Origin: a bacterium
GTDB taxonomy: Bacteria > JADJOY01
Reading direction: 5' to 3'
NCBI GenBank assembly: GCA_046331705.1
Contig: JAXLQJ010000005.1
Location: 62,001-126,000 of the forward strand
Length of the DNA: 64,000 nt
This document shows, in pieces, positions 41,887 through 64,000 of this stretch. Position 1 is the stretch's first letter. Every line of letters starts with the position of its first letter. A model generated the notes under the pieces. It saw only the letters and a program-made list of their open reading frames with translations. It was not told where the DNA came from and searched no databases. Position numbers and translations under genes: made by a program.

Positions 41887-42552
41887 TCAGTGCCGGTGGA
41901 CGAGATAGAGCAAGGGGAAGAGGAAGATCCACACGATGTCCACGAAGTGCCAGTAGAGGCCCACGTTCTCGACGGGCGTGTTGTATTCCGCGTCGTAGGC
42001 ACCCTTCATCGCGTTCTTGAGCAGCCAGAAGAGCAGCCCGATCCCGATCACCATGTGGAACGCGTGCATCCCGGTCATCGCGAAGTAGATCGCGAAGAAG
42101 ATGCGTGCGTGCGGCGCCTCGGGGCCGTGGAACTGGAAGTGCGGGCCGGGGATCAGGTGCTCGACCCACTTGTGGTGGTACTCGAAGCCCTTGATCACGA
42201 GGAACATCGAGCCGAGCACGATCGTGCCCAGCAACGCCAGCACTTGCCCACGCCGATTGCTGGTCTGAGCACCGTGGACCGCCATCGCCATGGTCAACGA
42301 GCTCATGATCAGCACGGCCGTGTTGATCCCGCCGAGCAGGACGTTGAGCTCACGGCTCGCCTCCGCCCAAGCCTCCGGGAAGCGGAACCGATACACGGCG
42401 TAGGTCACGAACAACCCACCGAAGAACAGCACTTCCTGCACCAGGAAGAACCACATGCCGAGCGTCGCAGCCTCTCGCTGCTGACGCGCGTTCGCGAACT
42501 GGTGGGCGACTGGATGCCCGCCCGGCGCGTGAGTCGTCATCGCGTCAGCCAA
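41887..42552 (-). CDS. ctaE: Cytochrome c oxidase subunit III
   Basis: [28 protein letters not shown]. Confidence 0.95.
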
Positions 42553-44185
42553 CGGACACCTCCGGCTCGGGCGCGCTCGTGTAATCGTACGCTTCCCACG
42601 TGACGGTCGGGGTGACCGCGAAGTTCTCCGTCGGCGGCGGCGACGGGGTGCGCCACTCGAGCCCAGTCGCCCCGTACGGATTCTCCGGCGCGTCCTTGCC
42701 GTAGCGCATCGACCAGATCAGGTAGATCAGCGGCAGCAGGTAGCCGAGGCCGAGGATCGACGCGCCCGCCGTCGAGAGCACGTTGAGCACCTGGAACTCC
42801 GGCGGATAGGACCAATACCGCCGCGGCATGCCCATGTAGCCGAGGATGAACTGCGGGAAGAACGTGAGGTTGAAGCCCACGAACACCAGCGAGGCCGAGA
42901 TCTTGCCCCAGAATTCCGGGTAGAGCTTGCCGCTGATCTTCGGCCACCAGAAATGGAGGCCGCCCATGTACGCCATGATCGTGCCGCCCACCATGACGTA
43001 GTGGAAGTGCGCGACGACGAAGTAGGTGTCGTGGACGTGCACGTCGAGGCCCATGGTCCCGAGGAACACGCCGGTGAGCCCACCGATCACGAACAGCCCG
43101 ATGAATCCGAGCGCGTAGAGCATCGGCGTCTCGAACGAGACGGATCCCTTGTAGAGCGTCGCCGTCCAATTGAAGACCTTCACGGCCGAGGGCACCGCCA
43201 CGAGCATCGTCAGCGCCGAGAACACGAGCCCGGCGTAAACCGACTGGCCGGCCACGAACATGTGGTGACCCCAGACCAAGAAGCCGATCAAGGCGATCGC
43301 GAGGCTGGAGAAAGCGACGAACTCGTACCCGAACACGCGCTTCCGGGAGAACGTCGAGATGAGCTCGCTGATCACGCCCATCGCGGGGAGAATCATGATG
43401 TAGACGGCCGGGTGCGAGTAGAACCAGAAGAGGTGCTGGAAGAGCACCGGGTCACCGCCCAGCGAGGCGTCGAAGATCCCGAGGTGGAAGATGCGCTCCA
43501 GCGCGAGCAGCACCACGGTGATCGCCACCACCGGCGTGCCGAGCATGATGACCAGCGACGTCGCGTAATGAGCCCAGATGAAAAGCGGCAAACGGAACCA
43601 CGTCAGGCCGGGCGCTCGCATCCGGTGAATGGTCACCAGGAAGTTGAGGCCGGTCAGAATCGACGAGAATCCGATGACGAACACGCCCAAGCCAACCGGG
43701 ATGACGTTGGACGTCGACCACTGGGTGCTGTACGGAACGTAGAACGTCCACCCCGTGTCGATGCCGCCAGTCGCGATGCCATAGAGCGTGAGCGCGATGC
43801 CGATGTTGTAGACGTACCAGCTCGCGAGGTTGATCCGCGGAAACGCGAGGTCCTTGGCACCGATCATCAGCGGCACCAGGAAGTTCCCCAGCACCGCGGG
43901 AATGGCGGGAATGAGGAAGAAGAACACCATCATCACGCCGTGCATCGTGAAGACCTTGTTGTAGGTCTCCGCTTCCATCAGATCGCCGGCGGGCGTGAGA
44001 AGCTCGAGCCGCACCAGCCCGGCAAAGACCGCCCCCAAGAGGAAAGCTGCCGTCACCGAGCACAGATAGAGAACCGCGATGCGCTTGTGATCGATCGTCA
44101 GCAGCCACGACCGAATGCCGTAGCTGACGTTGATGTAGTCCTGCGGTTCGTCGTGCAGGTCCGTTTCCGATGCCACGGTGCTCAT
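42545..44185 (-). CDS. ctaD: Cytochrome c oxidase subunit I (A2 type)
   Basis: [19 protein letters not shown] (YS motif), WGHH, HFHY. Confidence 0.97.
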
Positions 44186-45186
44186 GGCGCAGCTCCTGCC
44201 GCCGTCGCCGGGGCGTCGACGCCAGCCTCCGGCGCCTTCAGCGACTTCACGTACTCGATCAGTGCCAAGAGCTGTTCCTCGTCCACTTGGCCCTTGAAGG
44301 TGGGCATGACCGGATTGAAACCATCGACGACGTCCGCGAGCGGCTCGAGGATCGAGCGGCGGACGTACGCCTCGTCGGCGATGACCGTGTCACCGCTCTT
44401 CAACTTCACCGGGTGCCCGAACACGCCCTGCAGATTCGGACCGAGCGCCGGCGGCTCGCCGGGGCCAGGCTTCCGGTGGCAGCTCACGCACGCGAACTTC
44501 GTGAACAGCGCTGCACCCGCGGCAACCGGTGAGACCTGTGCCTGGCCGGGCGCGGCACCACCGCCCGAGAGCCAGCGCTGGAAGTCCTCCGGCTGCATCA
44601 CCTCGATCCAACCGCCCATCTTCGAGTGCTCGGTTCCGCAATATTCCGCGCAGAACAGGTGATAGCGTCCCGGCTTGATCGCGCGGAACCAGAGCGTCGT
44701 GTAGCGCCCGGGCAGCACGTCCGTCTTCACGCGGAACGCGGGCACGTAGAAGCTGTGGATCACGTCTTCCGAGGTCATGCGGAGCTTCACGGCGCGCCCG
44801 AGCGGGACGTGCAGCTCGTTGATCTCGCGCTTGCCGTTCGAATGCTGCAGCTTCCACATCCAGCGCTTGCCCACGACGTCCACGTTCATGCTGTCGTTCG
44901 GCGGGCGATAGATGTGGAAGAAGACCACGGCGCCCCAGCCGAACAACACCAGCGCGATGATGAACGGCGCCACCGTCCAACCGATCTCGAGCGGCGTGGA
45001 ACCGTGCAACGGCTCCGGCGTGATATTGTCCGGGCGGCGCCGGTACTTGACCGCGAGCACCGGCACGAGCACGAAGATGAGCACGCCGAAGAAGAGCGCG
45101 ATCGCGAGCCAGAAATAGAAGAGCGCGTCGACTCGCAGCGCAACCGACGAGGCTGCTTCGGGAAACAACGGGACGTTAGACCCCAT
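44182..45186 (-). CDS. ctaC: Cytochrome c oxidase subunit II with fused cytochrome c (caa3)
   Basis: [17 protein letters not shown] CuA site, CVSCH heme c. Confidence 0.96.
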
Positions 45187-46030: not shown

Positions 46031-46521
46031 TCGTGTCCTGCCTTCGGCTCCGCCGGGGCCACCGTGGCGCGCGAATCGGACCCGCCCGCACCATCCGAGC
46101 CGCGGTTCGTGGCCGCGAAGCGCTGATAGGGCTGAGCACCCTGCCGCACGGGAAGACCCTCGGAGGCAACGACCTCGATCGCGCGATCGATCGGAATGCG
46201 CACCACGCCACCGGACTTGTCGATCCACTCGTACGTGCCGAGGCGCTCGCGCTCGTGCGCCCGAAGCTCGGCCAGCGTCTCGCCGATCTTCGGCTCCAGC
46301 CGCGGCGCGGGCACCACCTCGGGCACCTCGCTGCGCGTGACGGAAACCGGCTCCGGCTGTCGGGCCTGCTCCCGATCGTGGAAGTACACGAACAACAATC
46401 GAACGGGAATCATGACGACGAAACCCGCGACGAGAATCGCGCCGGTGATGATCACCACCGGGCGAACGGATACGTCGCGCTTCTCGTACGACGTGGCGCC
46501 CGCGTGCTCAGTGCCCGCCAT
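46027..46521 (-). CDS. actG: Alternative complex III subunit ActG-like
   Basis: One TM, PAPRL, YEWID...VRIPIDRA; lies between actF and SCO. Confidence 0.7.
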   Translation of the reverse strand: MAGTEHAGATSYEKRDVSVRPVVIITGAILVAGFVVMIPVRLLFVYFHDREQARQPEPVSVTRSEVPEVVPAPRLEPKIGETLAELRAHERERLGTYEWIDKSGGVVRIPIDRAIEVVASEGLPVRQGAQPYQRFAATNRGSDGAGGSDSRATVAPAEPKAGHE

Positions 46522-47704
46522 GCTGAAGCGCCTCCTCGAGGCCCGAAGCACCCACCATCAGCAGAGGGCGTGCTGCGAGCTGCCGCAGATACTCGGAAAG
46601 CCACCAGCCGCCGATCGCTACCGGCGCCACGAAGTCCATCCAGTGGATCGAGAGCTTCTGCGGGTGAAACGCCGGGGCCGTCATCCAGAACAGGTCGACC
46701 AGCCGCATGAACAGGATCAACCCGGCGACCTTGAGCACCAGCGCCGCGTTGAAGTTGAAGCTTCGAGGCAAGAGCAGCAGGAACGGCACCAGGAACTGAA
46801 AGACCACCAGCGCGATGCCGAACCATTGCCACCCGCCGTGCAAGCGCGCCACGTACCAGGTGATCTCTTCCGGGAGATTGCCGCTCCAGATGATCAGATA
46901 TTGCGAGAACGCGAAGTAGGCCCAGACCATGACGAACGCGAACAACAGCTTCGCCAAGTCGTGGAAGTGCGCCCGATTCACCAGCTCCGCCATCGGCCCG
47001 CTGCGCGTCAGGAAGAACAAGATCGCGATCACGAACGATTGCGTCGACAGCGCCTGGCTGGCCAACCACAGCAAACCGAAGATCGTCGAGAACCAGTGCG
47101 GCTCCAGCGACATCACCCAGTCGACGGCCGCGAAGGCGATCGAAAGGACGTACAGCGCGAGCCCCGGGCCCGCGAACATCTTGATCTTCTTCTCGATCGC
47201 GTAGTCACGCGTCCGGTCGAGCTCCGCCGACCAACGGTTCAGATTTGCCGCCAGGAAGAGCCAGAGCCCGAAGTAGAGGGCGGCTCTCACCAGGAAGAAC
47301 GTGACGTTCAGGTAGCCGGCCTTGGCGCGGAGAACCTCGTCGGCGGCAGCCTCCGGCCCGGCCCAGACGTAAAGAGCCTTGACGCCGACGAAGATCGGCA
47401 GGCCCAGGATGGCGAGCAGCCAGATCGTGCGAGTCCCGGCCTCGAGCAACCGGCGAATCATCATCCCCCACGCTCCGCCAGTCAGATACTGGAGCATGAG
47501 GATGGCGAGACACCCGATCCCGAGCCCGACCCAGAACACCCAGCCGAGCAGCCATGAGCGCAGGAACTGCTCGCGGTTCAGGAAGAATCCCACGGCCATC
47601 AACGCGGTCGCCACGGCACCGACGATGAGCGACAGCCGACGCTTGGCCGCCCACGCTTCCGGCGCGCGGATCTCGCCCAGACGTGCCAACTCGCTCGGGC
47701 TCAT
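46508..47704 (-). CDS. actF: Alternative complex III subunit F
   Basis: 10 TMs, DWVMSLEPHWFSTIFG, HDLAKLL, SQYLIIWSGNLPEE. Confidence 0.9.
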   Translation of the reverse strand: MSPSELARLGEIRAPEAWAAKRRLSLIVGAVATALMAVGFFLNREQFLRSWLLGWVFWVGLGIGCLAILMLQYLTGGAWGMMIRRLLEAGTRTIWLLAILGLPIFVGVKALYVWAGPEAAADEVLRAKAGYLNVTFFLVRAALYFGLWLFLAANLNRWSAELDRTRDYAIEKKIKMFAGPGLALYVLSIAFAAVDWVMSLEPHWFSTIFGLLWLASQALSTQSFVIAILFFLTRSGPMAELVNRAHFHDLAKLLFAFVMVWAYFAFSQYLIIWSGNLPEEITWYVARLHGGWQWFGIALVVFQFLVPFLLLLPRSFNFNAALVLKVAGLILFMRLVDLFWMTAPAFHPQKLSIHWMDFVAPVAIGGWWLSEYLRQLAARPLLMVGASGLEEALQHGGH

Positions 47705-48316
47705 GGGTGCTCCCCGTGCGTCGCCGCCCCACTCCCAGCAGCCGCGGCCTTGGGCGCCTCGAGCAGCGCGGTTCGCTCGGACGCCGGGACGTCATCGACC
47801 TTGGCATTCTGGCTGCGCTGAAGTGCCTTGAGATACGCCACGATCGCCCAGCGATCCTGAACCGGGATCTGCGGCCCGTAAGCCGGCATCCGACCGAAGC
47901 CGTGACTGATGACGTCGAACACGTAACCCGGGCGCGCTTCACGCAGCCGCGCGGTGTGAAAGGACGGCGGCTGCGCATAACCGCGCTGCACGACCACGCC
48001 CTTGCCCTCGCCGACGCGGTCGTGGCAGGGCGAGCAATAGATGTCGAACCGCTCGTGGCCGCGCGTGAGCATTTCGCGGGTGACTCCGATCGGGAACTCC
48101 TCCACGAGCTGGCCGCCGCTCTTGCCGGTGTAGAGCGCCTCGTCCTCGTTCAGGTCGCCGCGGGCGACGGCGCCCTCCACGAGCGAACGGCTCGACTGCC
48201 CGTCGGCGAAGAAGTTGCTCGGCGTCAATGGCCGCGGCGCAGGCTGGTCCGCCATCCGCTGCCGGCAGCCGACGACGAGGGCCAGCGTCACCAGCAGCGC
48301 GGCGCGCGCTCGGGGG

Positions 48317-48333
<17 letters not shown>
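47701..48333 (-). CDS. actE: Alternative complex III monoheme cytochrome c lipoprotein
   Basis: Lipobox VVGC, MADQP, CSPCH, MPAY, DRWAIVAY. Confidence 0.9.
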
Positions 48334-50270
<1,937 letters not shown>

Positions 50271-50300
50271 CTCGCGTGCTCACTCGGCGGCGTGCGCCCG

Positions 50301-53317
<3,017 letters not shown>

Positions 53318-53321
<4 letters not shown>

Positions 53322-53968
53322 CGGTGACACGTCGAGCAGTCGGTTCGGGTATGGACTTGGTTCTGCTTCATCAACTCTTGCCCGCGCGCCTCCGGATCCT
53401 CCGGCGGCTCGGCATCCATGCGGAAGACGGCGTCCGCTGGACTCAGATACTTGGCGGGGTCACGGTGGCAACCGAGACACCATTCCATGTAGAGCGAGTT
53501 GGACTTCCAGGTGAGCGCCATGCGGTCGACGCGCCCGTGACACGTCACACACGCGACGCCCTTGGCAACGTGGACGTTGTGCGGGAAGTAGACGAAGTCA
53601 GCGAGATCGTGGACCCGCACCCACTCGAGCGGCTGGCCGGTCTTCCAGCTCTGCCGCACAGGCTCCAGAACCGGCGCCTCGGTCCAGATCTGCGAGTGAC
53701 AATTCATGCAGGTCTGGGTGGGCGGGATTCCGGCGAAGGAGGACTCTTCGACAGAGGTGTGACAGTACCGGCAGTCCAAACCCACGCCTTGCACGTGGTG
53801 CTGATGGCTGAACGGAACGGTCTGGTGACGCGGGATGTTCACGCCGGTGACGTACGACGAGCGCTGAAACGCATAGCCGAGCGCGAAGATACCCACAGCA
53901 ACCAACCCCGCACCGAAGATCGATGCGCGGGCGAGAGTGTTGGTGCTCCGGTGAAAAATCTGGGCCAT
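53318..53968 (-). CDS. actA: Alternative complex III pentaheme cytochrome c
   Basis: One TM, five CxxCH motifs (CRYCH, CMNCH, CVTCH, CLGCH, CSTCH). Confidence 0.95.
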
Positions 53969-54048
53969 CGGTCCCTTGGGCACTCGTCGAACGCTTCAAG
54001 CGCCGACAACCACTTGAATTTACTGATGAATTAACAAGATGCGCGTGG

Positions 54049-55717: not shown

Positions 55718-55751
55718 GTCGCTCGCCTCGCCCCGCGGCCCGGTCGCCGAC

Positions 55752-56399
55752 TCAGGGGGAACGCTCCTCGAGCAGCTGCAGTGACCGCTCGAGGATCTCG
55801 TTCATTCCCCATTCCGAGGAGCGCTCGTAATAACCGCGAACTCGGCCCATTCGATCCACCAGCACGAACCTGCCGGTGTGCGCGATCTCGTAGGGGTCGA
55901 CGCTCGGCGACGGCGCGTCACCCACCGGGACCCGGAAGCCGTGCTCGGCGAGATCGACGATCTCGCGGCGCGCACCCGTGAGCAGGCGCCAGCGCGGCGC
56001 CAGCGCACCGACCTTCGCCGCGTAGTCGCGCAGCACCGCCGGCGTGTCGTGCTCCGGGTCGACCGAGATGCTCAGCAGCCGAACGCCCTCGACGTGCCGC
56101 TGCTCGAGGAGCTGCCCCAGCTCGGACATCGACTGCATCAGCCCCGGGCAGATCGACGGGCATTGCGTGAAGAAGAAGTTGGCGATGTAGACCTGGCCAG
56201 CGAGCTGGCTGGAGTCGAACGCCTGGCCTTCGACATCGACGAGACGGAAGGCCGGAACCGAGCCAAGCACCGGCGGGGGTTCGGGATCTCGCCGCAGCAG
56301 CGGCCGGATGGCCGTCAGCGAAACGGCGCCGATCACGAACGCTGTGACGAAGAATCGCCAGTCGAGAAACTCGCGTTCGCGCGCCTGTGAGTCGGTCAT
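55752..56399 (-). CDS. SCO1/SenC copper chaperone
   Basis: N-terminal TM, FFTQCPSICP, SVDPEHDTP, IAHTGRFVLVD. Confidence 0.92.
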   Translation of the reverse strand: MTDSQAREREFLDWRFFVTAFVIGAVSLTAIRPLLRRDPEPPPVLGSVPAFRLVDVEGQAFDSSQLAGQVYIANFFFTQCPSICPGLMQSMSELGQLLEQRHVEGVRLLSISVDPEHDTPAVLRDYAAKVGALAPRWRLLTGARREIVDLAEHGFRVPVGDAPSPSVDPYEIAHTGRFVLVDRMGRVRGYYERSSEWGMNEILERSLQLLEERSP

Positions 56400-56713
56400 C
56401 GAGCGTCGGAGCCGCCCAAGCTCGCCCCGAATGCCTTTTCGAGGACTTCGGCATAGCGGTACTGGCGCAGGTTCTGTCGCGCGTTGAGCAGCACCAAGAC
56501 GACGATGACCGCCCGCGCGCTCACCTCGAAGTGTGGATTGCGCACCCGCAGCACGGTGTAGAGCACCGCCAAGCCGAGCCCGGCGACGACGCCGATCACG
56601 CTGAGAGCCAAGAAGAGCTTCTTGCGACGGAGCGCGCGACGCACGAATTGCGCTTGGCTCGCAGCGAGCGGCGGCTCAGCGCCCCCGGGGCGCTCGACGG
56701 TGGCCATCTCCAC
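56396..56713 (-). CDS. Small two-TM hypothetical protein
   Basis: Two hydrophobic helices; stop overlaps the SCO start; GGAGAG RBS. Confidence 0.65.
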   Translation of the reverse strand: MEMATVERPGGAEPPLAASQAQFVRRALRRKKLFLALSVIGVVAGLGLAVLYTVLRVRNPHFEVSARAVIVVLVLLNARQNLRQYRYAEVLEKAFGASLGGSDAR

Positions 56714-56818
56714 GTTCTCTCCGTGTCGCTTGCGTGCCAGGCCGGCGCGCCGCTGCGCTCGTTACGAGTTGGTGTCCGCGAGGAATCGGGAACCCGTTAC
56801 GAAATGGTGAAGTTAGGG

Positions 56819-56847
56819 TTGACCGCGACTCCGAGCGGTTCTACACT
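56819..56847 (+). promoter_or_regulatory. Sigma-70 promoter of the second act operon, TTGACC-N17-TACACT
   Basis: Near-consensus boxes with 17-nt spacer. Confidence 0.7.
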
Positions 56848-56866
56848 CGCGGCCCGTTGCTCGTTG

Positions 56867-56882
56867 AGTGACATTCGTCACA
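56867..56882. promoter_or_regulatory. CRP/FNR-family-like site AGTGA-N6-TCACA
   Basis: GTGA-N6-TCAC just downstream of the predicted transcription start. Confidence 0.55.
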
Positions 56883-56998
56883 GACGACAAGTCGAAAAAT
56901 CCAGCTTCGCTCGCGAGTCTAGTAGGGCCCAGGAGGGGCCGGCAACGCACGGTCCCGCTGCACTGGATCCTCGTTGGTCGTAGGTGGAGGTCGAGCGC

Positions 56999-57646
56999 TT
57001 GGCGCAGGTCTTCCCGGAATCGAGCAATCGGGCCGCCGTCGCGTTGGCGGTTGGCGGGCTCGTGGCCGCGACTCTCGCGATTGGCGTCGTCTGGTACTAC
57101 TTCTCGCCTCGTTACACGGACGTCGGCTTCGCGCCAAAACAGCCGGTCCCCTATAGCCATCGCCTGCACGTCGGCACCCTCGGCCTCGACTGCAAGTACT
57201 GCCACGCCTCGGTCGAGCGCTCGGCGGTCGCGAACGTGCCGCCGACGCAGGTGTGCATGAACTGTCACTCGCTGGTGAAGCGCGACAGCGCGCTGCTCGC
57301 CCCGATTCGCGCGAGCTACGCCACGGGCCAGCCCATGCAATGGGTGCGCGTGCACAACCTGCCGGACTTCGCATTCTTCCACCACGCGGTCCACGTGCGC
57401 GCCGGCGTCGGCTGCGTCGAGTGCCATGGGCGCATCGACGAGATGGACGTCGTCACCCAAGCGGAGCCACTCAGCATGAGCTGGTGCCTCGACTGCCACC
57501 GCGATCCGGCCCCGCACCTGCGCCCCACCGAGCAGGTCACCAACATGCGCTGGCAAGCGCCCGCGGATCAGCGGCGCGCCGGCGAGCGGATCATCGCCGA
57601 GAAGCACCTCGCGCCACCGCTCGACTGCTCGGGGTGCCATCGATGA
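56999..57646 (+). CDS. actA: Second ActA-like pentaheme cytochrome c
   Basis: TTG start 8 nt after GGAGG (AQVF aligns with AQIF of the first ActA); CKYCH, CMNCH, CVECH, CLDCH, CSGCH. Confidence 0.93.
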   Translation: MAQVFPESSNRAAVALAVGGLVAATLAIGVVWYYFSPRYTDVGFAPKQPVPYSHRLHVGTLGLDCKYCHASVERSAVANVPPTQVCMNCHSLVKRDSALLAPIRASYATGQPMQWVRVHNLPDFAFFHHAVHVRAGVGCVECHGRIDEMDVVTQAEPLSMSWCLDCHRDPAPHLRPTEQVTNMRWQAPADQRRAGERIIAEKHLAPPLDCSGCHR

Positions 57647-60600
57647 CCTCGCCACAGCCCCCGCGGGACGACGTCAGGTACTGGCGCACCGTCGCGCAGA
57701 TCGAGGTCGGGCGCGACGCGAGCGACGCAACGACCCCTGAGTTTCCCGATGGTGCCGATCAGCCGCCCGATGCCGTGTCCCGGCGCCAGATGCTCGGGCT
57801 CTCCGGGGTGACCCTCTCCATCGCCGGGCTCGCCGCGTGTCGCCGCCCCCTCGAGAAGATCGTCCCCTACGTCAAGCCGCCCGAGGAGATCATTCCGGGC
57901 GTGGCGCGCTACTACGCCACCACGATGCCGTTCGGGCGCAGCGCGTACGGCGTCGTGGTCGAGAGCCACGAGGGGCGGCCCACCAAGCTCGAAGGGAACG
58001 AGCTGCATCCCGCGACGAGCGGCGCCTCGAGCGCCTGGATGCAGGCGGCGATCTACGATCTCTACGATCCCGACCGCGCCGGCCCGGTGCGCAAACGAGA
58101 CGCGCCGGCCGACTGGGCGGAGTTCGATGCCTTCTGGAAAGAGCACGCCGCGTCACTCGTCACGGCGCGCGGGGCCGGCCTCGCCGTCCTGAGCGAGCCG
58201 TTCACGTCGCCGACGCTGGCGCGCCTGCGAAGCAAGTTCCTCGAGACCTTCCCCGAGGCGCGCTGGGCCACCTACGAGCCGCTCGGCAACGAGAACGAGC
58301 GCGCAGGCGTCGCAGCACTCACCGGTCGAGCGCTCGAGGCGCTCGCCGACTACCAGCAGGCGAAAGTCGTGCTGGCAATCGACGCCGATCCGTTCGGCAC
58401 CGACCTGGAAGCGGTTCGTCATGCGCGCGGGTTCGCCGCCGGACGCGAGGTTGCTGCGCCCGCGGAGCACGGCGGCGAAGCCCCGCCAACGCTCAATCGC
58501 CTCTACGTCGTCGAAGGCGCTTTCACCGCGACTGGCGGCATGGCGGACCATCGCTTGCGTTTGCGACGCGGTCGGATGCCCGCCGTGATCGCGGCCCTCG
58601 CCGGCGAGCTCGGCCTCGCCGCTCCCGCGCCGCCCAGCGCGGACATCGACGCGCGCTGGGTTCGCGCGGCGGCGCAAGACCTCGCGGCGCACCGCGGTGC
58701 GAGCCTGGTGGTCGCCGGCGCCCATCTGCCGCCGGCGGTTCACGCCTGGGTGCTCGCGATCAACGCGCATCTCGGCAATCTCGGAGCCACGCTCAGCTAC
58801 CGCGAGCCGCGCGATGGCACCCGCTCCAGCGTCACCGAGCTGACCGAGCTGACCGCCGCCATGCGGGCGGGTGAGGTCTCGACACTCGTCGTGCTCGGCG
58901 GGAACCCCGTCTACGACGCTCCGAGCGATGTCGGGTTCGCCGCCGCGTTGGAAAAGGTGCCGACACGCATCCGCGTCGGCACGAAGGTCGACGAAACGTC
59001 GAAGCTCGCCCACTGGCATCTGCCCCTCGCTCACTTCCTGGAAAGCTGGGGCGATGCGCGCGACGCGGACGGCACGCTCAGCGTGGTGCAGCCGCTGATC
59101 CTGCCCCTGCACGGCGGCCGTTCGACCGCAGAGATCCTCGCGGCCCTGGCGGCGAATCCGGCGCAGAAGGAACCAACGACCGGCTATGAGCTGGTTCGCG
59201 AGACATGGCAGCGAATCCTCGGCGACGCGGATCTCGAGTCGCGCTGGGAGCGCGTGCTCCACGACGGCGTCCTCGCCGGAAGCGCCACCGCCAACGAGCT
59301 CACCGCGCTCTCCACGCCCACGCCCACCGAGGCGACGCTCGTGGATTCGACGCCCGCCCCGAGCGCGGCTGCGCTCGAGCTCTCCTTCGCGCCGTCGTTC
59401 AACGTCTACGACGGCCGATTCGCCAACATCGCCTGGCTACAAGAGCTGCCGGATCTCAGCACCAAGCTGACGTGGTCCAACGCCGCGCTGCTGAGCTACG
59501 CGACGGCGCGCGAGCTCGGCGTCGTGGACGAGGACCTGGTCACGCTCGTCGTGGGCGACGAGAAGATCGAGATCCCGGTCATCATCAATCCGGGACAGGC
59601 CGACCACACCGTGACGGTGGCGCTCGGCTACGGCCGCGAGACCGCGGGGCGCGTCGGCTCCAAGGTCGGCGCGAACGCCTACCACCTGCGCACGACGCGA
59701 ACGCTCGCCGGCACCTCCGGCGCGCGAATCGAGCGTCTCGGTCGCCAGGCGGAGCTCGCCCTGACCCAAGACCATTGGATCATCGACGATCTCGGCGCCA
59801 AGGAACGCGATCGACGGGTGCCCACGCTGATCCGCGAGGGCAGCCTCGCCGAGTTCCTGCACGAGCCCGAGTTCGCCAAGGAGATGGTGGAGCACCCGCC
59901 GCTCGAATCGCTGTGGCAAGAGCGCGCGTACGCCGAGAGCCCCCAATGGGGCATGACCATCGACCTCAACGCCTGCACCGGCTGCAACGCGTGCGTGACC
60001 GCCTGCCAGGCCGAGAACAACATCCCCGCGGTCGGGCCGGATCAGGTACGTCGCGGCCGCGAGATGCACTGGATCCGCGTCGACCGCTACTTCAAGGGTG
60101 ACCCGAACGATCCGGAAGCGATGGTCGTGCAGCCCATTCCCTGCATGCAATGCGAGAACGCGCCGTGCGAGCAGGTGTGCCCGGTCGCCGCCACCGTCCA
60201 CGACGACCACGGCCTCAACGCCATGGTCTACAACCGCTGCATCGGGACCCGTTACTGCTCCAACAACTGCCCCTACAAGGTGCGGCGCTTCAACTACTAC
60301 AACTTCACGAAAGACACGCCGGAAACGCTCAAGATGGCGATGAACCCGAACGTCACGGTTCGGGCCCGCGGCGTGATGGAAAAGTGCACCTATTGCTTGC
60401 AGCGGCTCAACGCCGCGCGGCAGCGCGCCAAGCTCGACGACCGCCCCCTCGCGGACGGCGACGTGCGCACCGCCTGCCAGCAAGCGTGCCCCGCGCGGGC
60501 GATCGAGTTCGGCGACATCCGCGATCCCGAAAGCCGCGTCTCTCGCGCCAAGGCGAGCCCGCGCAACTACGAGCTGCTCGCCGAGCTCAACACCAAGCCG

Positions 60601-60657
60601 CGGACCTCGTACCTGGCGCGGATCCGCAACCCGAACCCGGACCTGGCGAAAGCGTGA
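57643..60657 (+). CDS. actB: Second ActB-like subunit
   Basis: SRRQML..LAAC, EGRPTKLEGN, CTGCNAC, CMQCENAPC, CIGTRYCSNNCP, KCTYC. Confidence 0.94.
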   Translation: MTSPQPPRDDVRYWRTVAQIEVGRDASDATTPEFPDGADQPPDAVSRRQMLGLSGVTLSIAGLAACRRPLEKIVPYVKPPEEIIPGVARYYATTMPFGRSAYGVVVESHEGRPTKLEGNELHPATSGASSAWMQAAIYDLYDPDRAGPVRKRDAPADWAEFDAFWKEHAASLVTARGAGLAVLSEPFTSPTLARLRSKFLETFPEARWATYEPLGNENERAGVAALTGRALEALADYQQAKVVLAIDADPFGTDLEAVRHARGFAAGREVAAPAEHGGEAPPTLNRLYVVEGAFTATGGMADHRLRLRRGRMPAVIAALAGELGLAAPAPPSADIDARWVRAAAQDLAAHRGASLVVAGAHLPPAVHAWVLAINAHLGNLGATLSYREPRDGTRSSVTELTELTAAMRAGEVSTLVVLGGNPVYDAPSDVGFAAALEKVPTRIRVGTKVDETSKLAHWHLPLAHFLESWGDARDADGTLSVVQPLILPLHGGRSTAEILAALAANPAQKEPTTGYELVRETWQRILGDADLESRWERVLHDGVLAGSATANELTALSTPTPTEATLVDSTPAPSAAALELSFAPSFNVYDGRFANIAWLQELPDLSTKLTWSNAALLSYATARELGVVDEDLVTLVVGDEKIEIPVIINPGQADHTVTVALGYGRETAGRVGSKVGANAYHLRTTRTLAGTSGARIERLGRQAELALTQDHWIIDDLGAKERDRRVPTLIREGSLAEFLHEPEFAKEMVEHPPLESLWQERAYAESPQWGMTIDLNACTGCNACVTACQAENNIPAVGPDQVRRGREMHWIRVDRYFKGDPNDPEAMVVQPIPCMQCENAPCEQVCPVAATVHDDHGLNAMVYNRCIGTRYCSNNCPYKVRRFNYYNFTKDTPETLKMAMNPNVTVRARGVMEKCTYCLQRLNAARQRAKLDDRPLADGDVRTACQQACPARAIEFGDIRDPESRVSRAKASPRNYELLAELNTKPRTSYLARIRNPNPDLAKA

Positions 60658-61262
60658 AGCGCATGAGCCCCTCGCGATTGGCCGAGCGACGCGTCCGCGC
60701 GTGGATCGCGACCTGCATCGGCGCGGCGTCCTTCGGGCTCTTCGGCGGCGGCTGCGCCCGCGGCTGCACCTCGAGCCGCGAGCCAATCCACCTCAACCCC
60801 AGCATGGACTACCAGCCGCGCTACGATCCGCAGTCGGAAAGCGCCTTCTTCTACGACGGCTCCTCGATGCGCGCACCGGTGCCTGGAACCATCGCGCGGG
60901 GCGAGCTTCATCTCGATCGCGCGCTGCAAACCGGAAAAGACGCCGCCGACGCTTTCGTGAAGACCAATCCCGCCGGAACCGACGAAGCGCTGGTGGCCCG
61001 CGGCCGCGATCGATTCGCCATCTACTGCGCGCCCTGCCACGACAGCCGCGGTCGCGGCAAAGGCATCCTCTACGAGCGCGCCAACGTGCCGACGCCGAGC
61101 ATGCACTCCGAGAAGATCGTGAACATGCCGGACGGCCAGCTCTTCGACGTGATCACCAACGGCTCGGGGCTCATGCCGTCCTATCGATGGCCGATTCCCA
61201 CCCACGACCGGTGGGCGATCGTCGCGTTCGTGCGCGAGCTCGAGCGCCAGGAGAGCCCGTGA
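60654..61262 (+). CDS. actE: Second ActE-like monoheme cytochrome c lipoprotein
   Basis: GGGC lipobox, MDYQP, CAPCH, MPSY, DRWAIVAF; alternative start 60663. Confidence 0.88.
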   Translation: MKRMSPSRLAERRVRAWIATCIGAASFGLFGGGCARGCTSSREPIHLNPSMDYQPRYDPQSESAFFYDGSSMRAPVPGTIARGELHLDRALQTGKDAADAFVKTNPAGTDEALVARGRDRFAIYCAPCHDSRGRGKGILYERANVPTPSMHSEKIVNMPDGQLFDVITNGSGLMPSYRWPIPTHDRWAIVAFVRELERQESP

Positions 61263-63139
61263 AACTGCGCGTGCTGGTGCCGATGGCCGTGGTGGCAGTG
61301 GTGCTCGGCGCCGCCTCGCTCGTCGGGGTCTGGTCTCAGCTCGAGCACCGCGCGTACCACGCACCCATCCGGGGCGAGTCGGAGGCGAGCACGCCGCGCG
61401 CTCAGGCCCTCGAGGACATCGCGAAGAAGAGCGCGGCCGAGGCCAAGGCGACGCCTTACAAGGAAGTCGAGTATCGGAAGTTTCCGGTCGTCGGCAGCCG
61501 CGTGGCGGTGTGGGTAGCCGCTCAGCTCCACCTGCTCTTCGCCGCCTTCGTGCTCGCCGTGCCGATGTTCGCGATCATCATCGAGATCATCGGCTACGCG
61601 ACCAAGGACTCGCGCTACGACCGCCTCGCCTACGAGTTCACGAAGCTGCTCTCGGTGTCGTTCTCGATCACCGCGACCTTCGGCGCGATGCTGACCTTCC
61701 TGCTCATCGCGCTCTATCCCAAGTTCACGACCTACCTGATGAGCGTCTTCAGCCCGACCTTCGCGCCGTACGTCGGGCTCTTCTTCGCGGAGGCGTTCTT
61801 TCTCTACAGCTACTACTACGGCTGGGGAAAGTTTCACCCGCTCGTCCACATCGGTCTGGGGCTGGGGCTCAACCTCGTCGGCACGGCGATCATGTTCATC
61901 GCGAACTCCTGGGTCTCGTTCATGATGTCGCCCGCCGGTGTGTCGGAGAACGGCGCGGTCCTGAACGTGATGGAAGCCGCCATGAACTTCACGTGGATGC
62001 CCATCAACATCCACCGGATCATCGCCAACGTGGCGTTCGGCGGATCCGTGGCTGCTGCTTACGCGGCGTGGAAGTACCTGGGCGCCACCACGGACGAAGA
62101 GCGAGCCCACTACGACTGGATGGGCTACATCGGCAACTTCGTCGCGATCCTGGCGTTCCTGCCGCTGCCCTTCGCGGGCTACTACCTGGCGCGCGAGATC
62201 TACGGCTACAACCAGGCACTCGGCATCATGATGATGGGCGGAGCGTTCTCTTGGCTCTTCATCATTCAAGCGGTGCTGATCGGCAATCTCTTCCTGGCCG
62301 CCAACGCCTACCTGTGGCTCGGCATGGGCCGGATCGAGGGCGCCCAGCCGTTCCAGAAGTTCATCAAGTACCTGCTCCTCACGATCGCCTTGTGCTTCGC
62401 GGTGTGGGCCACGCCGCGCTCCATCATCTCCACGGTCTCCGAGATTCGCGCGATGGGCGGTTCGACTCACCCCGCGCTCGGCTTCCTGGGTGTGATGTCG
62501 GCCAAGAACACGGCGGTCAACATCCTGATCCTCACCACGTTCATGAGCTTCCTGCTCTACCGCCGCTCGGGAAAGCAATCCGTTCGCGAGTGGGCCACGA
62601 AGGCGAACCTGGTTCAGTTCGCGCTCTTCTTCGGCGCCGCGGCCTGGGTGATCTTCTTCGGCATCCGCGGCTACTTCGTCGAAGCCAAGGTGCGCATCGG
62701 CTACTCGGTCTACCAGGTGGTGGCGGTGCTGTTCGCGATGGTGGCGATCACCGCCATCGACGTCCCGCTCTATCGCGGCGCGCGCTCCACCGGTGAGACC
62801 CGCTGGGGGCGAATGCCGCCGCTCTCGCAATACATCCTGATCTTCATCGCGGTCACCTTCACGTGGCTCATGGGCCTCATGGGTTACGTGCGCTCCGGGC
62901 TGCGGATGCACTGGCACGTGTACGGCGTCGTCCGTGACAACTCGGTCGACGCCTTCACGCCCACGCTGGGCTTCGCGACCAAGGTGGTTTCGGTGACAGT
63001 CCTGATCTTCTTCGCGCTGATCGGCATGGTCTTCTGGCTCGCGGGCCTCTCCCACGCCCCCGATTGGACCGCCAAGGGCGCGGAGCCGGCCAGCCCGGGC
63101 GCGGGCGGGCACCACGCCGGCGAAGGAGCGGCGGCATGA
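61259..63139 (+). CDS. Atypical cytochrome bd-like oxidase subunit I (Nitrospira/anammox-type bd-like family)
   Basis: About 13-14 TMs; AQLHLLFAAFVL, FFAE, NSWVSFMMSP, NIHR, ERAHYDWMG, MGYVRSGLRMHWH. Confidence 0.8.
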   Translation: MKLRVLVPMAVVAVVLGAASLVGVWSQLEHRAYHAPIRGESEASTPRAQALEDIAKKSAAEAKATPYKEVEYRKFPVVGSRVAVWVAAQLHLLFAAFVLAVPMFAIIIEIIGYATKDSRYDRLAYEFTKLLSVSFSITATFGAMLTFLLIALYPKFTTYLMSVFSPTFAPYVGLFFAEAFFLYSYYYGWGKFHPLVHIGLGLGLNLVGTAIMFIANSWVSFMMSPAGVSENGAVLNVMEAAMNFTWMPINIHRIIANVAFGGSVAAAYAAWKYLGATTDEERAHYDWMGYIGNFVAILAFLPLPFAGYYLAREIYGYNQALGIMMMGGAFSWLFIIQAVLIGNLFLAANAYLWLGMGRIEGAQPFQKFIKYLLLTIALCFAVWATPRSIISTVSEIRAMGGSTHPALGFLGVMSAKNTAVNILILTTFMSFLLYRRSGKQSVREWATKANLVQFALFFGAAAWVIFFGIRGYFVEAKVRIGYSVYQVVAVLFAMVAITAIDVPLYRGARSTGETRWGRMPPLSQYILIFIAVTFTWLMGLMGYVRSGLRMHWHVYGVVRDNSVDAFTPTLGFATKVVSVTVLIFFALIGMVFWLAGLSHAPDWTAKGAEPASPGAGGHHAGEGAAA

Positions 63140-63627
63140 GGATTCCGCCCGCGCTCAACGTGGTGGTGCTCGTGATCGCGACCACTGCGTTCTACACCTA
63201 CGTCGGCCAGCTGGTGCCCCAGAAGGAGATCCAGCCGCCCGCGGAGGTGAAGATCTCGAAGGACATGACCACCGCGGACTTGATCAAGGTCGGTGACGAG
63301 ATCGCGCACGGCAAAGGCATGTGCAGCACCTGCCACACGATCGGCAAGACCGGTGCGCTTCGTTACCCCGACCTGCAAGGCGTGGGAGAGCGCGCCAAGA
63401 CTCGCAAGCCCGGCTACAGCGACGTCGACTACTTCGCCGAGTCGCTCTACGAGCCCGACGCGTTCGTCGTACCGGGGTTCAACAAGGGCATGCCCACCAT
63501 CAACAAGGCTCCCATCGGCCTGACCGACGAGGAGATCCTCGCCGTGATGGCTTGGCTCCAGAGCCAGGGCGGCACGCCGAACGTCACCCTCAAGACCACG
63601 CACAAGTACCGGCCAAAGGCCGACTGA
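63136..63627 (+). CDS. Membrane-anchored monoheme cytochrome c
   Basis: N-terminal TM, CSTCH, ESLYEP, GMP; ATG overlaps prior stop. Confidence 0.88.
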   Translation: MRIPPALNVVVLVIATTAFYTYVGQLVPQKEIQPPAEVKISKDMTTADLIKVGDEIAHGKGMCSTCHTIGKTGALRYPDLQGVGERAKTRKPGYSDVDYFAESLYEPDAFVVPGFNKGMPTINKAPIGLTDEEILAVMAWLQSQGGTPNVTLKTTHKYRPKAD

Positions 63628-63668
63628 GACACCTGCGAAACGCGCTCGCGGGCCCGAGAGAGATCACC

Positions 63669-64000
63669 GTGAACCTCATCGTCATCGCCGGGATCGTCGC
63701 GGTGCTGATCGTGCTGCGGTTCGTCAGGCCGCCGCTGCCGATCTGGCTATCGGCGTGCTGGCTCGCGGTGTTCGCGCTGGTTCGCTTGGGATTCACGACG
63801 CCGGTGCCCGCCTCGGCCGTCAAGATCTACCTCTCGATCACGACCCTCGCCCTGTTCGTCTACGCGTTCACTTCTGCCGAGCGCGCCGCTCAGATCACCG
63901 GCCCGCTCGGCAAGCTGCTCGCGGAGCCGCGCTACACCCCGTTGCTCGCGCTGGTGGCCGTGGCGATCCCGGCGCTCGTCGCTTTCGACGTCTACAAGAC
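63669..64000 (+). CDS. Partial multi-TM protein, probably the N-terminus of a membrane-bound cytochrome c of the same operon
   Basis: Open to window end: VNLIVIAGIV...GFTTPVPASAVKIYL...; not in the ORF track; no heme motif visible yet. Confidence 0.6.
   Translation, partial: MNLIVIAGIVAVLIVLRFVRPPLPIWLSACWLAVFALVRLGFTTPVPASAVKIYLSITTLALFVYAFTSAERAAQITGPLGKLLAEPRYTPLLALVAVAIPALVAFDVYK

Follow-up and report, generated by a model that had tools for sequence, protein, structure and literature searches.

A probable second alternative complex III divided between two operons

Two facing operons at and beyond the end of the window (the whole 64,000-nucleotide stretch that was analysed) probably encode one complete second alternative complex III (ACIII-2) in halves, together with two terminal oxidases. 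The plus-strand half would supply the periplasmic, cofactor-carrying subunits ActA2, ActB2 and ActE2, translationally coupled to a module built around a cytochrome bd-like protein (BDL). The minus-strand half would supply three membrane subunits that have no cofactor, ActC2 (bearing the quinol site), ActD2 and ActF2, from a transcript shared with the genes of a heme-copper oxidase. We read the two as one complex because the membrane half missing from the first operon sits in the facing one, and this reading draws on which genes are present and in how many copies, on their synteny and co-occurrence, and on homology to the solved chains of ACIII.

The plus-strand operon starts in the last 7 kb of the window, is ~15 kb long and continues past the window end, its tail carrying putative cofactor-maturation genes (Table 1). 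ActA2 contains five CxxCH motifs and one TM-like segment (residues 18-36) and matches 6F0K_A with an E-value of 9e-76, in addition to cytochrome c7/c3 Pfam families. The match of ActB2 to 6F0K_B (E 1e-271) is spread over two stretches; Fer4 families were detected in it together with weak Molydop_binding matches, the TAT-variant signal model TIGR04519 was matched, QrcB/QrcC matches fell below the cut-off, and the Cys residues of its Fe-S domain are invariant in 26/26 orthologues. ActE2 found no match among Pfam or NCBIfam profiles; it aligns with 6F0K_E (E 2e-45) and shares 44% identity with ActE1. As the earlier sequence-only reading had described, actA2, actB2, actE2, the 626-aa bd-like gene and a monoheme cytochrome c gene (CytC1) are joined by stop/start overlaps. 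All four junctions are 4-bp overlaps, ATGA at actA2/actB2 and BDL/CytC1 and GTGA on either side of actE2. That reading was also right that no NrfD gene directly follows actB2, unlike the minus-strand actA1-F1 operon, where one is present. In the 270-bp region 5' of actA2, we found one sigma-70-like match compared with 0.8 expected from shuffles, which is no excess.

Table 1. Features of the two ACIII gene sets and of the BDL module. Positions are those of the window unless a contig (C5) or locus (L003, L084) is given.
Feature	Position	Strand	Description
caa3-type oxidase coxB (fused cytochrome c), coxA, coxC	41887..45186	-	COX2 + cytochrome c, COX1 and COX3 Pfam matches
Canonical ACIII genes actA1-B1-C1-D1-E1-F1 (comparator)	46508..53983	-	NrfD (ActC1), PF11821 (ActD1), ORF order
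Divergent intergenic region	56714..56983		270 bp, 5' of actA2; bounded by minus-strand ORF 56396-56713
actA2	56984..57646	+	220 aa; pentaheme cytochrome c, N-terminal membrane anchor
actB2	57643..60657	+	1004 aa; TAT-exported molybdopterin-like domain fused to four-cluster Fe-S domain
actE2	60654..61262	+	202 aa; monoheme cytochrome c, probable lipoprotein; 1 CxxCH
BDL	61259..63139	+	626 aa; putative OR-N-type CydA homologue; no Q-loop match
CytC1	63136..63627	+	163 aa; membrane-anchored monoheme cytochrome c; PF00034
TMcytC	63669..64000, continuing to window-equivalent 64490 (L003:7170-7991)	+	PF13442
actA2/actB2/actE2 (set 2)	C5:118984-123259	+	periplasmic half
actC2/actD2/actF2 (set 2)	C5:138922-142151	-	membrane half
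actC2	L084:7237-8652	-	PF03916 match

The sequence-only reading had proposed a rewired ACIII in which the bd-like protein stands in for ActC, ActD and ActF, and had itself named a dedicated set of these genes just downstream as evidence that would speak against it. The joining of ActABE to a bd-like gene stood: ActA, ActB and ActE lie immediately 5' of it in 58 of the 61 related loci whose upstream DNA was long enough to tell, a gene order far from chance. The substitution did not, since reading the contig beyond 64 kb revealed exactly such a set ~16 kb on. There, actC2 (start ~16.2 kb past the window end) heads a convergent minus-strand operon, in which actC2-actD2-actF2 is followed by a gene for a secreted protein of 237 aa (possible blue-copper motif; possible cupredoxin) and then by coxA, coxC, coxD, a 136-aa ORF and coxB, the cox genes being those of an aa3-type heme-copper oxidase. 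Between the end of this operon and the stop codon of the final gene in the plus-strand BDL operon lie 54 bp. ActC2 matches ActC of R. marinus (6F0K_C) with an E-value of 2e-199 and keeps the position of the quinol-site Asp169, ActD2 matches PF11821 (E 4e-67) and ActF2 matches 6F0K_F (E 3e-91); no ActA, ActB or ActE was found within the operon. The two parts of set 2 lie 18 kb apart on opposite strands. By tblastn, every subunit from ActA to ActF has exactly two copies in the genome (95.7% complete), and the two sets share 44-57% identity for A-E and 35% for F.

We infer that both halves assemble into one complex. Menaquinol would then be oxidised at ActC2, and electrons would pass to the [3Fe-4S] cluster of ActB2, the hemes of ActA2 and ActE2, where the path would branch, one arm leading to the heme-copper oxidase and the other running via c-type cytochromes to BDL. 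Two points count against this split: it is unusual for one complex to be spread over two operons, and the translational coupling links ActABE to BDL, not to ActC.

BDL and its accessory cytochromes

PF01654 matches only residues 80-317 of BDL, equivalent to profile positions 2-240 of 418, and alignments to PDB chains stop near residue 316. A hydropathy scan placed 12-14 TM-like segments in BDL, some overlapping, including those at residues 323-386, where the Q-loop would come. In the alignment with the Geobacillus CydA chain (5DOQ_A), His91 falls on His21 and His252 on the His186-type ligand. Both the His19-type and His186-type heme ligands are kept in 26/28 aligned relatives and a Glu107-type residue in 21/28; the Glu99-type (proton-channel) residue is without an aligned counterpart in BDL. 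BDL is the sole CydA-like gene found in its genome, and a search for cydB, as the sequence-only reading had suggested, returned no PF02322 match genome-wide, while a control search recovered PF02322 in 9 of 14 known genomes. With neither a CydB partner nor a Q-loop match, BDL does not fit the canonical cytochrome bd quinol oxidase (CydAB).

Judged by its sequence, BDL is most likely an oxidase that receives electrons from cytochrome c and reduces O2, which fits the suggestion of a cytochrome c-fed terminal reductase made beforehand. We favour this role because the heme ligands are kept, no Q-loop was matched and three cytochrome genes follow. It also draws on the OR-N family, for which available passages propose electron supply from cytochrome c, and on a BDL relative at 38% identity that clusters with Nitrospira and Manganitrophaceae records, the sole pointer to an OR-N clade placement. 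According to published passages, no OR-N protein has ever had its O2 reduction demonstrated biochemically.

CytC1 lies 3' of BDL in all 63 evaluable loci, and three cytochrome genes lie 3' of BDL in 63/63. CytC1 has one CxxCH motif and one N-terminal TM-like segment. The further TM gene noticed earlier, TMcytC, most likely starts at GTG 63669 and encodes four TM-like segments and a monoheme cytochrome c domain with one CxxCH motif. Past the window, the third gene encodes a diheme cytochrome c fused to an EB_dh-gamma-like domain with a C-terminal anchor, in agreement with the prediction of an ethylbenzene-dehydrogenase-gamma-like gene downstream. This domain matches PF09459 (E 9e-18) and EbdC (2IVF_C, E 3e-12); the match to NxrC (7B04_C, E 2.5e-4) is weak. 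Its gene is co-encoded with ActB2-type operons in 63/63 loci. At the sites aligned to the heme-b ligands of EbdC, which we take to be Met and Lys, Phe is present in 58/61 and Arg in 61/61 sequences, and a Lys neighbouring the ligand position is kept in 40/61. Because Phe and Arg occupy these presumed ligand positions, heme b in the EB_dh-like domain is regarded as putative.

The two halves occur together across genomes

The sequence-only reading had called for a survey of actB neighbourhoods lacking NrfD. We surveyed 36 genomes (G000-G035), all chosen for carrying BDL and many of them kin, so that the counts are not independent. In 32/36, one ActC-less ActB, located in the BDL operon, was matched by one ActB-less ActC, a one-to-one co-occurrence that runs counter to the replacement of ActC by BDL. 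Two genomes (G005 and G032) had neither. The other two (G006 and G021) had the ActC-less ActB without an orphan ActC, and both assemblies are incomplete, one being 2.6 Mb and the other having a contig end 1.4 kb after BDL. All remaining ActBs in the 36 genomes have ActC directly 3'; in G015 and G025 the split set provides the only ActB and ActC found. Both halves lie on one contig in 27 genomes, 24 of them with a convergent and 3 with a divergent arrangement.

Eight of nine orphan-ActC loci read ActC-ActD-ActF, the 237-aa protein, CoxA and CoxB, one of the nine is without a detectable ActF, and none of the nine contains ActA, B or E. The two genomes without ActA2B2E2 are also without ActC2D2F2; in these (loci L071 and L087), BDL and/or the second oxidase adjoins an unsplit ACIII. 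In the tree, 19 orphan ActC proteins fall on one side of a branch and 12 paired ActC proteins on the other, with support of 98/98. The split ACIII-BDL system is conserved in at least three phyla besides that of the host, which is not a Nitrospirota nitrifier and whose phylum is represented by three species in the collection.

Weighing of other explanations

The most direct competitor holds that ActA2-B2-E2 and BDL form a self-contained complex, with BDL taking over from ActC as membrane anchor and quinone interface, and that actC2D2F2-cox is unrelated. The run of four consecutive overlaps from actA2 through the cytochrome c gene and the conserved ActABE-BDL order speak for this arrangement, as does the 841-aa relative P0112, which looks like a fusion of ActE and BDL and has a 199-residue stretch with 59% identity to ActE2. 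That fusion may be a frameshift artefact at the 4-bp gene overlap, and a real one would invert the expected topology. Moreover, both or neither of the partnerless subunits occur in 34/36 BDL genomes and an orphan ActC alone in 0/36, BDL and ActC have no profile similarity (hhalign probability 0.2-0.3%), and the quinol-binding Q-loop part of CydA is unmatched in BDL. ActC2D2F2 by itself would be functionless, because it has neither its own ActA/B/E nor, according to the available text, a redox cofactor. Taken together, these data make a self-contained ActABE-BDL complex very unlikely. A different possibility accepts the split ACIII and assigns the BDL module to the entry of electrons from a periplasmic donor, via the EB_dh-like/cytochrome c subunits, into ACIII or the heme-copper oxidase, a role proposed for lithotrophic Nitrospirota, or to the reduction of NO or another acceptor. 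For Ca. Manganitrophus and nitrite oxidisers, published passages discuss this module type as an acceptor of periplasmic electrons, and passages on OR-N enzymes contain no assay of one; the unaligned Glu99-type residue also speaks for this possibility. We nevertheless consider these roles unlikely: BDL keeps both heme ligands by which the O2-reducing four-helix core is defined, the other terminal-oxidase matches in the genome, searched with the window's own proteins as queries, are of heme-copper types only, and the 36 kb inspected around the island contained no recognisable donor enzyme of a lithotroph.

The EB_dh-like subunit raises the question of what ActB2 touches. In type II DMSO-reductase enzymes, a four-cluster beta subunit naturally pairs with a gamma-type EB_dh subunit, and because of this pairing ActB2 may contact the EB_dh-like subunit directly instead of ActC. 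In a dual-docking arrangement, ActA2B2E2 would sit on ActC2D2F2 for the oxidation of quinol, and the four-cluster domain of ActB2 would in addition be bound by the EB_dh-like subunit, so that the Fe-S wire gains a second outlet leading to BDL. The resemblance of its domain to EbdC and, weakly, to NxrC, both of which bind beta subunits, and its constant presence with ActB2-type operons favour such docking, and the available part of Sousa et al. leaves the function of FeS2-4 in ACIII open. Its chances appear slim, as the presumed heme-b ligands are unconserved and G032 and G005 carry the same module with an ordinary ACIII. In addition, a gamma subunit docks by homology at the [3Fe-4S] end, a site already taken by ActC in ACIII. 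A branched megacomplex, with the periplasmic Fe-S/heme module of the split ACIII wired to both the aa3 and OR-N oxidases, and to the latter through an EB_dh-type subunit docking on ActB2 as NxrC does on NxrB, is likewise improbable; if true, it would give a function to the unexplained Fe-S clusters 2-4 of ACIII. We retain the complete second ACIII in two halves, serving two oxidases, as the likely explanation.

Comparison with known systems

All six core subunits of the ACIII of Rhodothermus marinus, Flavobacterium johnsoniae and Roseiflexus castenholzii (ActABCDEF, in a supercomplex with caa3/aa3) are also present here. As in described ACIII loci, where oxidase clusters commonly lie 3' of the act genes (Sousa et al., in the part available), an oxidase cluster follows act genes. 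In contrast to the single cluster known for ACIII, A/B/E and C/D/F reside in convergent operons, each joined to a different oxidase. The first operon of the window, actA1-F1 followed 3' by the caa3 genes, has the layout of the Acidobacteria ACIII-A2 caa3 'superoperon', whereas the second ACIII is split; the available text on that superoperon makes no mention of a split ACIII or a bd-like partner (Trojan et al. 2021).

Like the type II DMSO-reductase enzymes EbdABC and NxrABC, the plus-strand operon encodes a beta-like domain with four clusters, within ActB2, alongside an EB_dh domain of gamma-like type. Unlike them, no molybdopterin-binding catalytic subunit was detected beyond the cofactor-less ActB type, and, unlike EbdABC, the presumed Met/Lys heme ligands are not conserved.

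BDL shares with the OR-N family, as described in the accessible part of a preprint (Murali, Gennis and Hemp 2021), the CydA-like N-terminal core, the His19-type ligand, the missing quinol-site match and the lack of CydB. The hydropathy scan gave BDL 12-14 TM-like segments, some of them overlapping, against ~14 TM helices in the OR-N1/N2 type. In the passages available, 'TO_1' of Ca. Manganitrophus and Nitrospira consists of one bd-like protein plus two c-type cytochromes and a cytochrome b in the periplasm; here, likewise, two cytochrome c genes and then an EB_dh-type gene lie 3' of BDL. Unlike the OR-N/'TO_1' modules, the EB_dh-like domain here is fused to a diheme cytochrome c, ActABE precedes the module and the host lies outside the Nitrospirota nitrifiers.

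The sequence-only reading placed ACIII modules next to bd-like proteins in Nitrospira/Nitrospina genomes, and the available portions of PMC12342949 and 10.1101/2021.11.15.468770 confirm this for Nitrospirota. According to published passages, Nitrospirales have OR-N5 CydAA' immediately 3' of their ACIII genes (actAB1B2CDE), and 'TO_3' of Ca. Manganitrophus combines ACIII with two clade V bd-like proteins, so that ACIII is genetically coupled to a bd-like oxidase in these systems as it is here. In both, actC and actD stay with actAB, there is no actF and two 10-TM CydA-like proteins are present, as far as those passages describe; here, actC/D/F are placed in another operon, actF is kept and a single protein, putatively of the 14-TM type, is encoded.

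The ActA2-ActB2-ActE2 operon and its continuation

The assembly of the organism itself is 8.17 Mb long and 95.7% complete, and the window corresponds to C5:62001-126000. From window position 56984 on, there are six plus-strand genes, the last of which is only begun inside the window, and the first four gene junctions are 4-bp overlaps of the form ATGA or GTGA. The sequence-only reading had described this run as actA, actB and actE joined to a gene for a cytochrome-bd-like protein (BDL) and to a monoheme cytochrome c gene (CytC1), a description that is borne out by the gene calls, by matches to the chains of the solved alternative complex III (ACIII) and by the overlaps. It was also right that no NrfD gene follows actB2, whereas one is present in the canonical minus-strand operon, which reads actA1-B1-C-D-E-F followed by SCO1 and caa3 oxidase genes. 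Between both ACIII systems, at 54263-56713 on the minus strand, are a HemY-like gene of the flavin amine-oxidase family, a gene for a SCO1/SenC copper chaperone and a 105-aa ORF without family match; heme and copper assembly functions are sited between the two respiratory operons.

Genes of the two operons encoding the second ACIII set. Positions without prefix are window positions; L003 and L084 are stretches of the same genome reaching past the window end (window position = L003 position + 56499; window-equivalent = L084 position + 71499).
Gene or product	Position	Strand	Features
actA2	56984-57646	+	5 CxxCH, one N-terminal TM-like segment; R. marinus ACIII chain A, E 9e-76
actB2	57643-60657	+	TAT-variant signal model, weak molybdopterin-like matches, four-cluster ferredoxin domain; R. 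marinus ACIII chain B, E 1e-271
actE2	60654-61262	+	one CxxCH, no family match; R. marinus ACIII chain E, E 2e-45
BDL	61259-63139	+	626 aa; PF01654 restricted to residues 80-317
CytC1	63136-63627	+	membrane-anchored monoheme cytochrome c
Four-TM cytochrome c (sixth gene)	starts in window; first in continuation beyond it	+	four TM-like segments, monoheme c domain
561-aa protein	L003:7988-9673		signal peptide, two heme c motifs, EB_dh-like domain (PF09459, E 9e-18), C-terminal anchor
690-aa protein	tail		two Usp and two PCP_red domains
GNAT acetyltransferase	tail
Mrp/NUBPL Fe-S carrier	tail
147-aa PCP_red protein	tail		zinc-ribbon-like
Radical SAM/SPASM protein	tail		PCP_red domain; best models AhbD and NirJ2, below cut-offs (291 and 279 bits vs 500)
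actC2	C5:140760-142094	minus	NrfD family; 6F0K_C, E 2e-199; Asp169 position kept
actD2		minus	PF11821, E 4e-67
actF2		minus	6F0K_F, E 3e-91
237-aa secreted protein	L084:4672-5385 (window-equivalent 76171-76884)	minus	between actF2 and coxA2

An ethylbenzene-dehydrogenase-gamma-like (EB_dh-like) gene had been predicted downstream, and it was indeed found there as a domain of the 561-aa protein. This domain also matches EbdC (E 3e-12) and, weakly, NxrC. However, at the positions aligned with what we take to be the heme ligands of EbdC, Phe occurs in 58 and Arg in all of the 61 orthologues; heme b in this domain would be a prediction from family membership. The diheme c part of the same fusion (residues 35-247) matches PDB 6H5L chain B (E 2e-51), an entry entitled 'conserved hypothetical cytochrome protein' that one preprint cites as a Kuenenia HAO structure; at the level of sequence, this match is a further tie of the BDL module to the electron carriers of anammox bacteria and nitrifiers. 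Behind the cytochrome genes follows a conserved tail of five genes (L003:9714-15415, window-equivalent 66213-71914). Three proteins with tetrapyrrole-associated domains adjoin a heme-decarboxylase-like enzyme. The bd-like oxidase may therefore have a maturation route of its own for heme or another cofactor.

An operon scan returned one promoter-like site (0.8 expected) and three terminator-like sites (7.1 expected), numbers not above chance. Four RNA libraries (three studies) contain contigs, 150-390 nt long and with 0-5 differences, that fall on cox, the tail genes, the EB_dh-like gene and on actA2, actB2 and BDL; DNA carry-over is possible and none of these contigs bridges a gene junction, and we do not count them as evidence of expression or co-transcription.

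A second operon carries actC2, actD2 and actF2

A whole-genome search with ActC1 located a second ActC gene on the minus strand, where the gene order is actC2, actD2, actF2, a gene for a 237-aa secreted protein, coxA, coxC, coxD, a 136-aa ORF and coxB. The stop codons of coxB and of the radical SAM gene are 54 bp apart, and the two operons are thus convergent. Because the gene beyond actC2 encodes an MlaE permease on the opposite strand, the actC2 operon does not include actA, actB or actE. Searches of the genome with all subunits (tblastn) detected exactly two copies each of ActA to ActF and no more, and the genome therefore encodes two full ACIII sets, the second of which is divided: the bd-like gene accompanies A2, B2 and E2, and a heme-copper oxidase accompanies C2, D2 and F2.

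The sole family match of the 237-aa protein is CarboxypepD_reg-like. An H...C-x2-H-x2-M pattern can be read in it, which could be a blue-copper (type-1 copper) site. The protein may serve as a carrier between the second ACIII and the aa3 oxidase, whose CoxB is without a cytochrome c domain.

It had been proposed from the window alone that the bd-like protein stands in place of ActC, ActD and ActF. The minus-strand actC2-actD2-actF2 set downstream, a finding that the sequence-only reading had itself named as refuting, contradicts this proposal. By homology, BDL is no apparent substitute for the quinol subunit either: the CydA profile match in BDL ends before the Q-loop, and hhalign of either half of BDL against the ActC profile gave a probability of 0.2-0.3%, no indication of an NrfD-like protein. 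In the solved ACIII, ActC, ActD and ActF are described as carrying no cofactor, and oxidase clusters as commonly located 3' of the act genes (PMC5928083). ActCDF alone would have no electron outlet and ActABE alone no quinol site; the two halves should accordingly belong together as one complete second ACIII.

The two halves co-occur across genomes

BDL relatives were found at E <= 0.001 in 7742 of 8000 scored candidates, the best 120 being 71-92% identical, and with one genome per species a BDL relative is encoded at 380 of 440 pattern-matching stretches. We kept the best 80 of these 380 loci, of which 79 were scored (L013 was dropped as a second copy of L012, and the organism's own L003 was excluded). 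The records are titled as Acidobacteriota classes, Binatia, Myxococcota or 'Deltaproteobacteria', together with a few labels resembling mis-binned contigs. Upstream sequence was long enough for scoring in 61 loci, and in all of these but L040, L071 and L082 (58 of 61) ActA, ActB and ActE lie directly 5' of BDL. Downstream sequence sufficed in 63 loci, and the three cytochrome genes lie 3' of BDL in every one. Where the tail could be evaluated (49 loci), Usp and GNAT are present in 47 and the complete set of five genes in 31. The full cluster, with a BDL 71-73% identical to that of the window, also occurs in five records (L045, L047, L049, L056 and L077) titled as Patescibacteria group, Acidimicrobiia, Verrucomicrobiia and Bifidobacteriaceae; they are probably mislabelled or mis-binned contigs rather than evidence of wide transfer. 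L012 and L013 are one 23.8-kb contig (CAYYWP010000053.1) returned in both orientations with identical gene order and a central radical SAM match on each strand, which looks like a palindromic assembly artefact.

The search for ActC and the ActB Fe-S domain covered 36 whole genomes: five genomes, 28 further ones chosen for long contigs, the two other members of the window's phylum and the organism's own genome. Exactly one ActB lacking ActC, located in the BDL operon, and exactly one orphan ActC (an ActC not preceded by ActB) were found together in 32 of them; the orphan of one genome (G034) is a fragment at a contig end. Neither was present in two genomes (G005 and G032), and two had only the ActC-less ActB, namely G006, a 2.6-Mb assembly, and G021, where the contig ends 1.4 kb past BDL. 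An orphan ActC without an ActC-less ActB occurred in none of the 36, and all remaining ActB genes have ActC within 600 bp downstream. No ActB or ActC other than the split pair was detected in two genomes (G015 and G025). Because BDL guided the choice of the 36 genomes, many of them related to one another, the counts describe a pattern and are no statistical test.

By our reading of the search tables, 27 genomes have both halves on a single contig, 24 in convergent and three (G001-G003) in divergent orientation. For 22 of the convergent pairs, the distance from the ActB Fe-S domain to ActC is 17-29 kb; for the remaining two it is 48 and 81 kb. Ten regions were fetched, one from G032 and nine with an orphan ActC: eight of the nine hold ActC-ActD-ActF, the 237-aa protein, CoxA and CoxB, and one is without a detectable ActF. 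The 237-aa protein is present in all nine and also in G032, and ActA, ActB or ActE was found in none of the nine orphan-ActC loci. A maximum-likelihood ActC tree of 31 sequences, from which three rows with stops inside the match were left out, separates 19 orphan from 12 paired sequences across one branch (support 98/98).

The two genomes with neither half are informative. In G032 (locus L087), the BDL operon is without ActABE and ActC2D2F2 is absent too, and an ordinary actA-F-caa3 cluster leads straight on to the 237-aa protein and the second oxidase, in convergent orientation to BDL. In G005 (locus L071), a single unsplit ACIII is followed by cox and then by the BDL module on one strand. 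These arrangements indicate that the halves are gained or lost together and that the oxidase modules also work beside an unsplit ACIII.

BDL resembles the OR-N family

In the alignment with the Geobacillus CydA chain, His91 and His252 of BDL fall on the His21- and His186-type heme ligands; they are kept in 26 of 28 diverse relatives. Glu178 corresponds to the Glu107-type residue (kept in 21 of 28), the Glu99-type position has no aligned counterpart, and His197, His404 and His553 are further conserved. A copper site was reportedly once proposed for a Nitrospira bd-like protein. A hydropathy scan gives 12-14 TM-like segments, and neither CydB nor a second CydA-like gene was found in the organism's genome. 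No internal repeat was signalled by hhalign within BDL, a single 95% match having arisen from two overlapping slices.

An exhaustive representative search with BDL yielded 1342 proteins with E <= 0.001, of which 237 reach E <= 1e-30. One representative is 38% identical over BDL residues 77-592, and the records of its cluster are named Nitrospira sp. and Candidatus Manganitrophaceae. An ESM Atlas search with residues 318-626, scoring below 0.9 and without structure, is a lead to Nitrospirota clusters only. The OR-N family is characterised in the preprint of Murali et al. by the lack of a quinol site, 14 helices in OR-N1 and OR-N2, a second CydA-like gene that is often absent and 'operons containing alternative electron donors', and the 'TO_1' cluster of Ca. 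Manganitrophus is described as comprising a bd-like protein, two cytochromes c and a periplasmic cytochrome b. The features of BDL are compatible with both.

Two relatives read as possible fusions. In P0112 (841 aa), BDL would be preceded by ActE (59% identity to ActE2 across 199 residues); it may reflect a frameshift at the 4-bp overlap and is counted as a hint only. P0122 (784 aa), a more distant BDL, ends in a C-terminal cytochrome c domain (E 0.019 to CytC1), a hint compatible with a cytochrome c as direct donor.

Discussion

The gene sets, their homologies and their linkage are established here. On this basis, we infer a branched electron path in which menaquinol would be oxidised at ActC2 and electrons would pass from FeS1 of ActB2 over the ActA2 hemes to ActE2. 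From there, one branch would lead to the aa3-type oxidase, perhaps with the candidate cupredoxin as intermediary, and the other through the three cytochrome proteins to BDL, where O2 would be reduced. One operon holds all proteins needing periplasmic cofactor insertion (heme c and the TAT-exported Fe-S protein) together with maturation-like genes, and the other holds the cofactor-less membrane subunits with the heme-copper oxidase. We speculate that this division reflects assembly or separate regulation.

In Nitrospira, Nitrospina and Mn-oxidising Nitrospirota, OR-N bd-like proteins are regarded as the principal terminal oxidases, and to our knowledge none has been characterised so far. Here an OR-N-type module would be fed by an ordinary quinol oxidoreductase. 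Relatives of BDL are encoded at 380 stretches of the species-representative collection, with record titles including Acidobacteriota, Binatia and Myxococcota, and the window's stretch was found in activated-sludge, wastewater and digester sequencing runs (13 studies). Taken together, these points make the electron donor of BDL predictable and the system testable outside slow-growing lithotrophs. The separate encoding of the periplasmic and the membrane half of an ACIII, each beside an oxidase of its own, also bears on the assembly and regulation of respiratory supercomplexes. Annotation pipelines would misread such an ACIII as incomplete or, as in the sequence-only reading, as lacking ActC.

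Several elements are already known from the sources consulted: ACIII and its oxidase supercomplexes, the OR-N family and, in Acidobacteria, the ACIII-caa3 superoperon. In Nitrospirales an ACIII is known next to OR-N5 genes, and 'TO_3' of Ca. Manganitrophus also includes one. In the literature searched, we found no description of ACIII as two separated halves, nor of an ActABE/OR-N/cytochrome/maturation operon outside the Nitrospirota; an ActAB-like module next to OR-N genes may already be shown in Figure 1 or the supplements of Murali et al., which give operon contexts for each OR-N subfamily.

In the species collection at a completeness of at least 90%, the window's phylum comprises three genomes of one family and two genera, each of 8.2-8.4 Mb, and BDL is present in all three. 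The host thus belongs to a little-known lineage and not to the Acidobacteriota, although the nearest named relatives of the island are Acidobacteriota.
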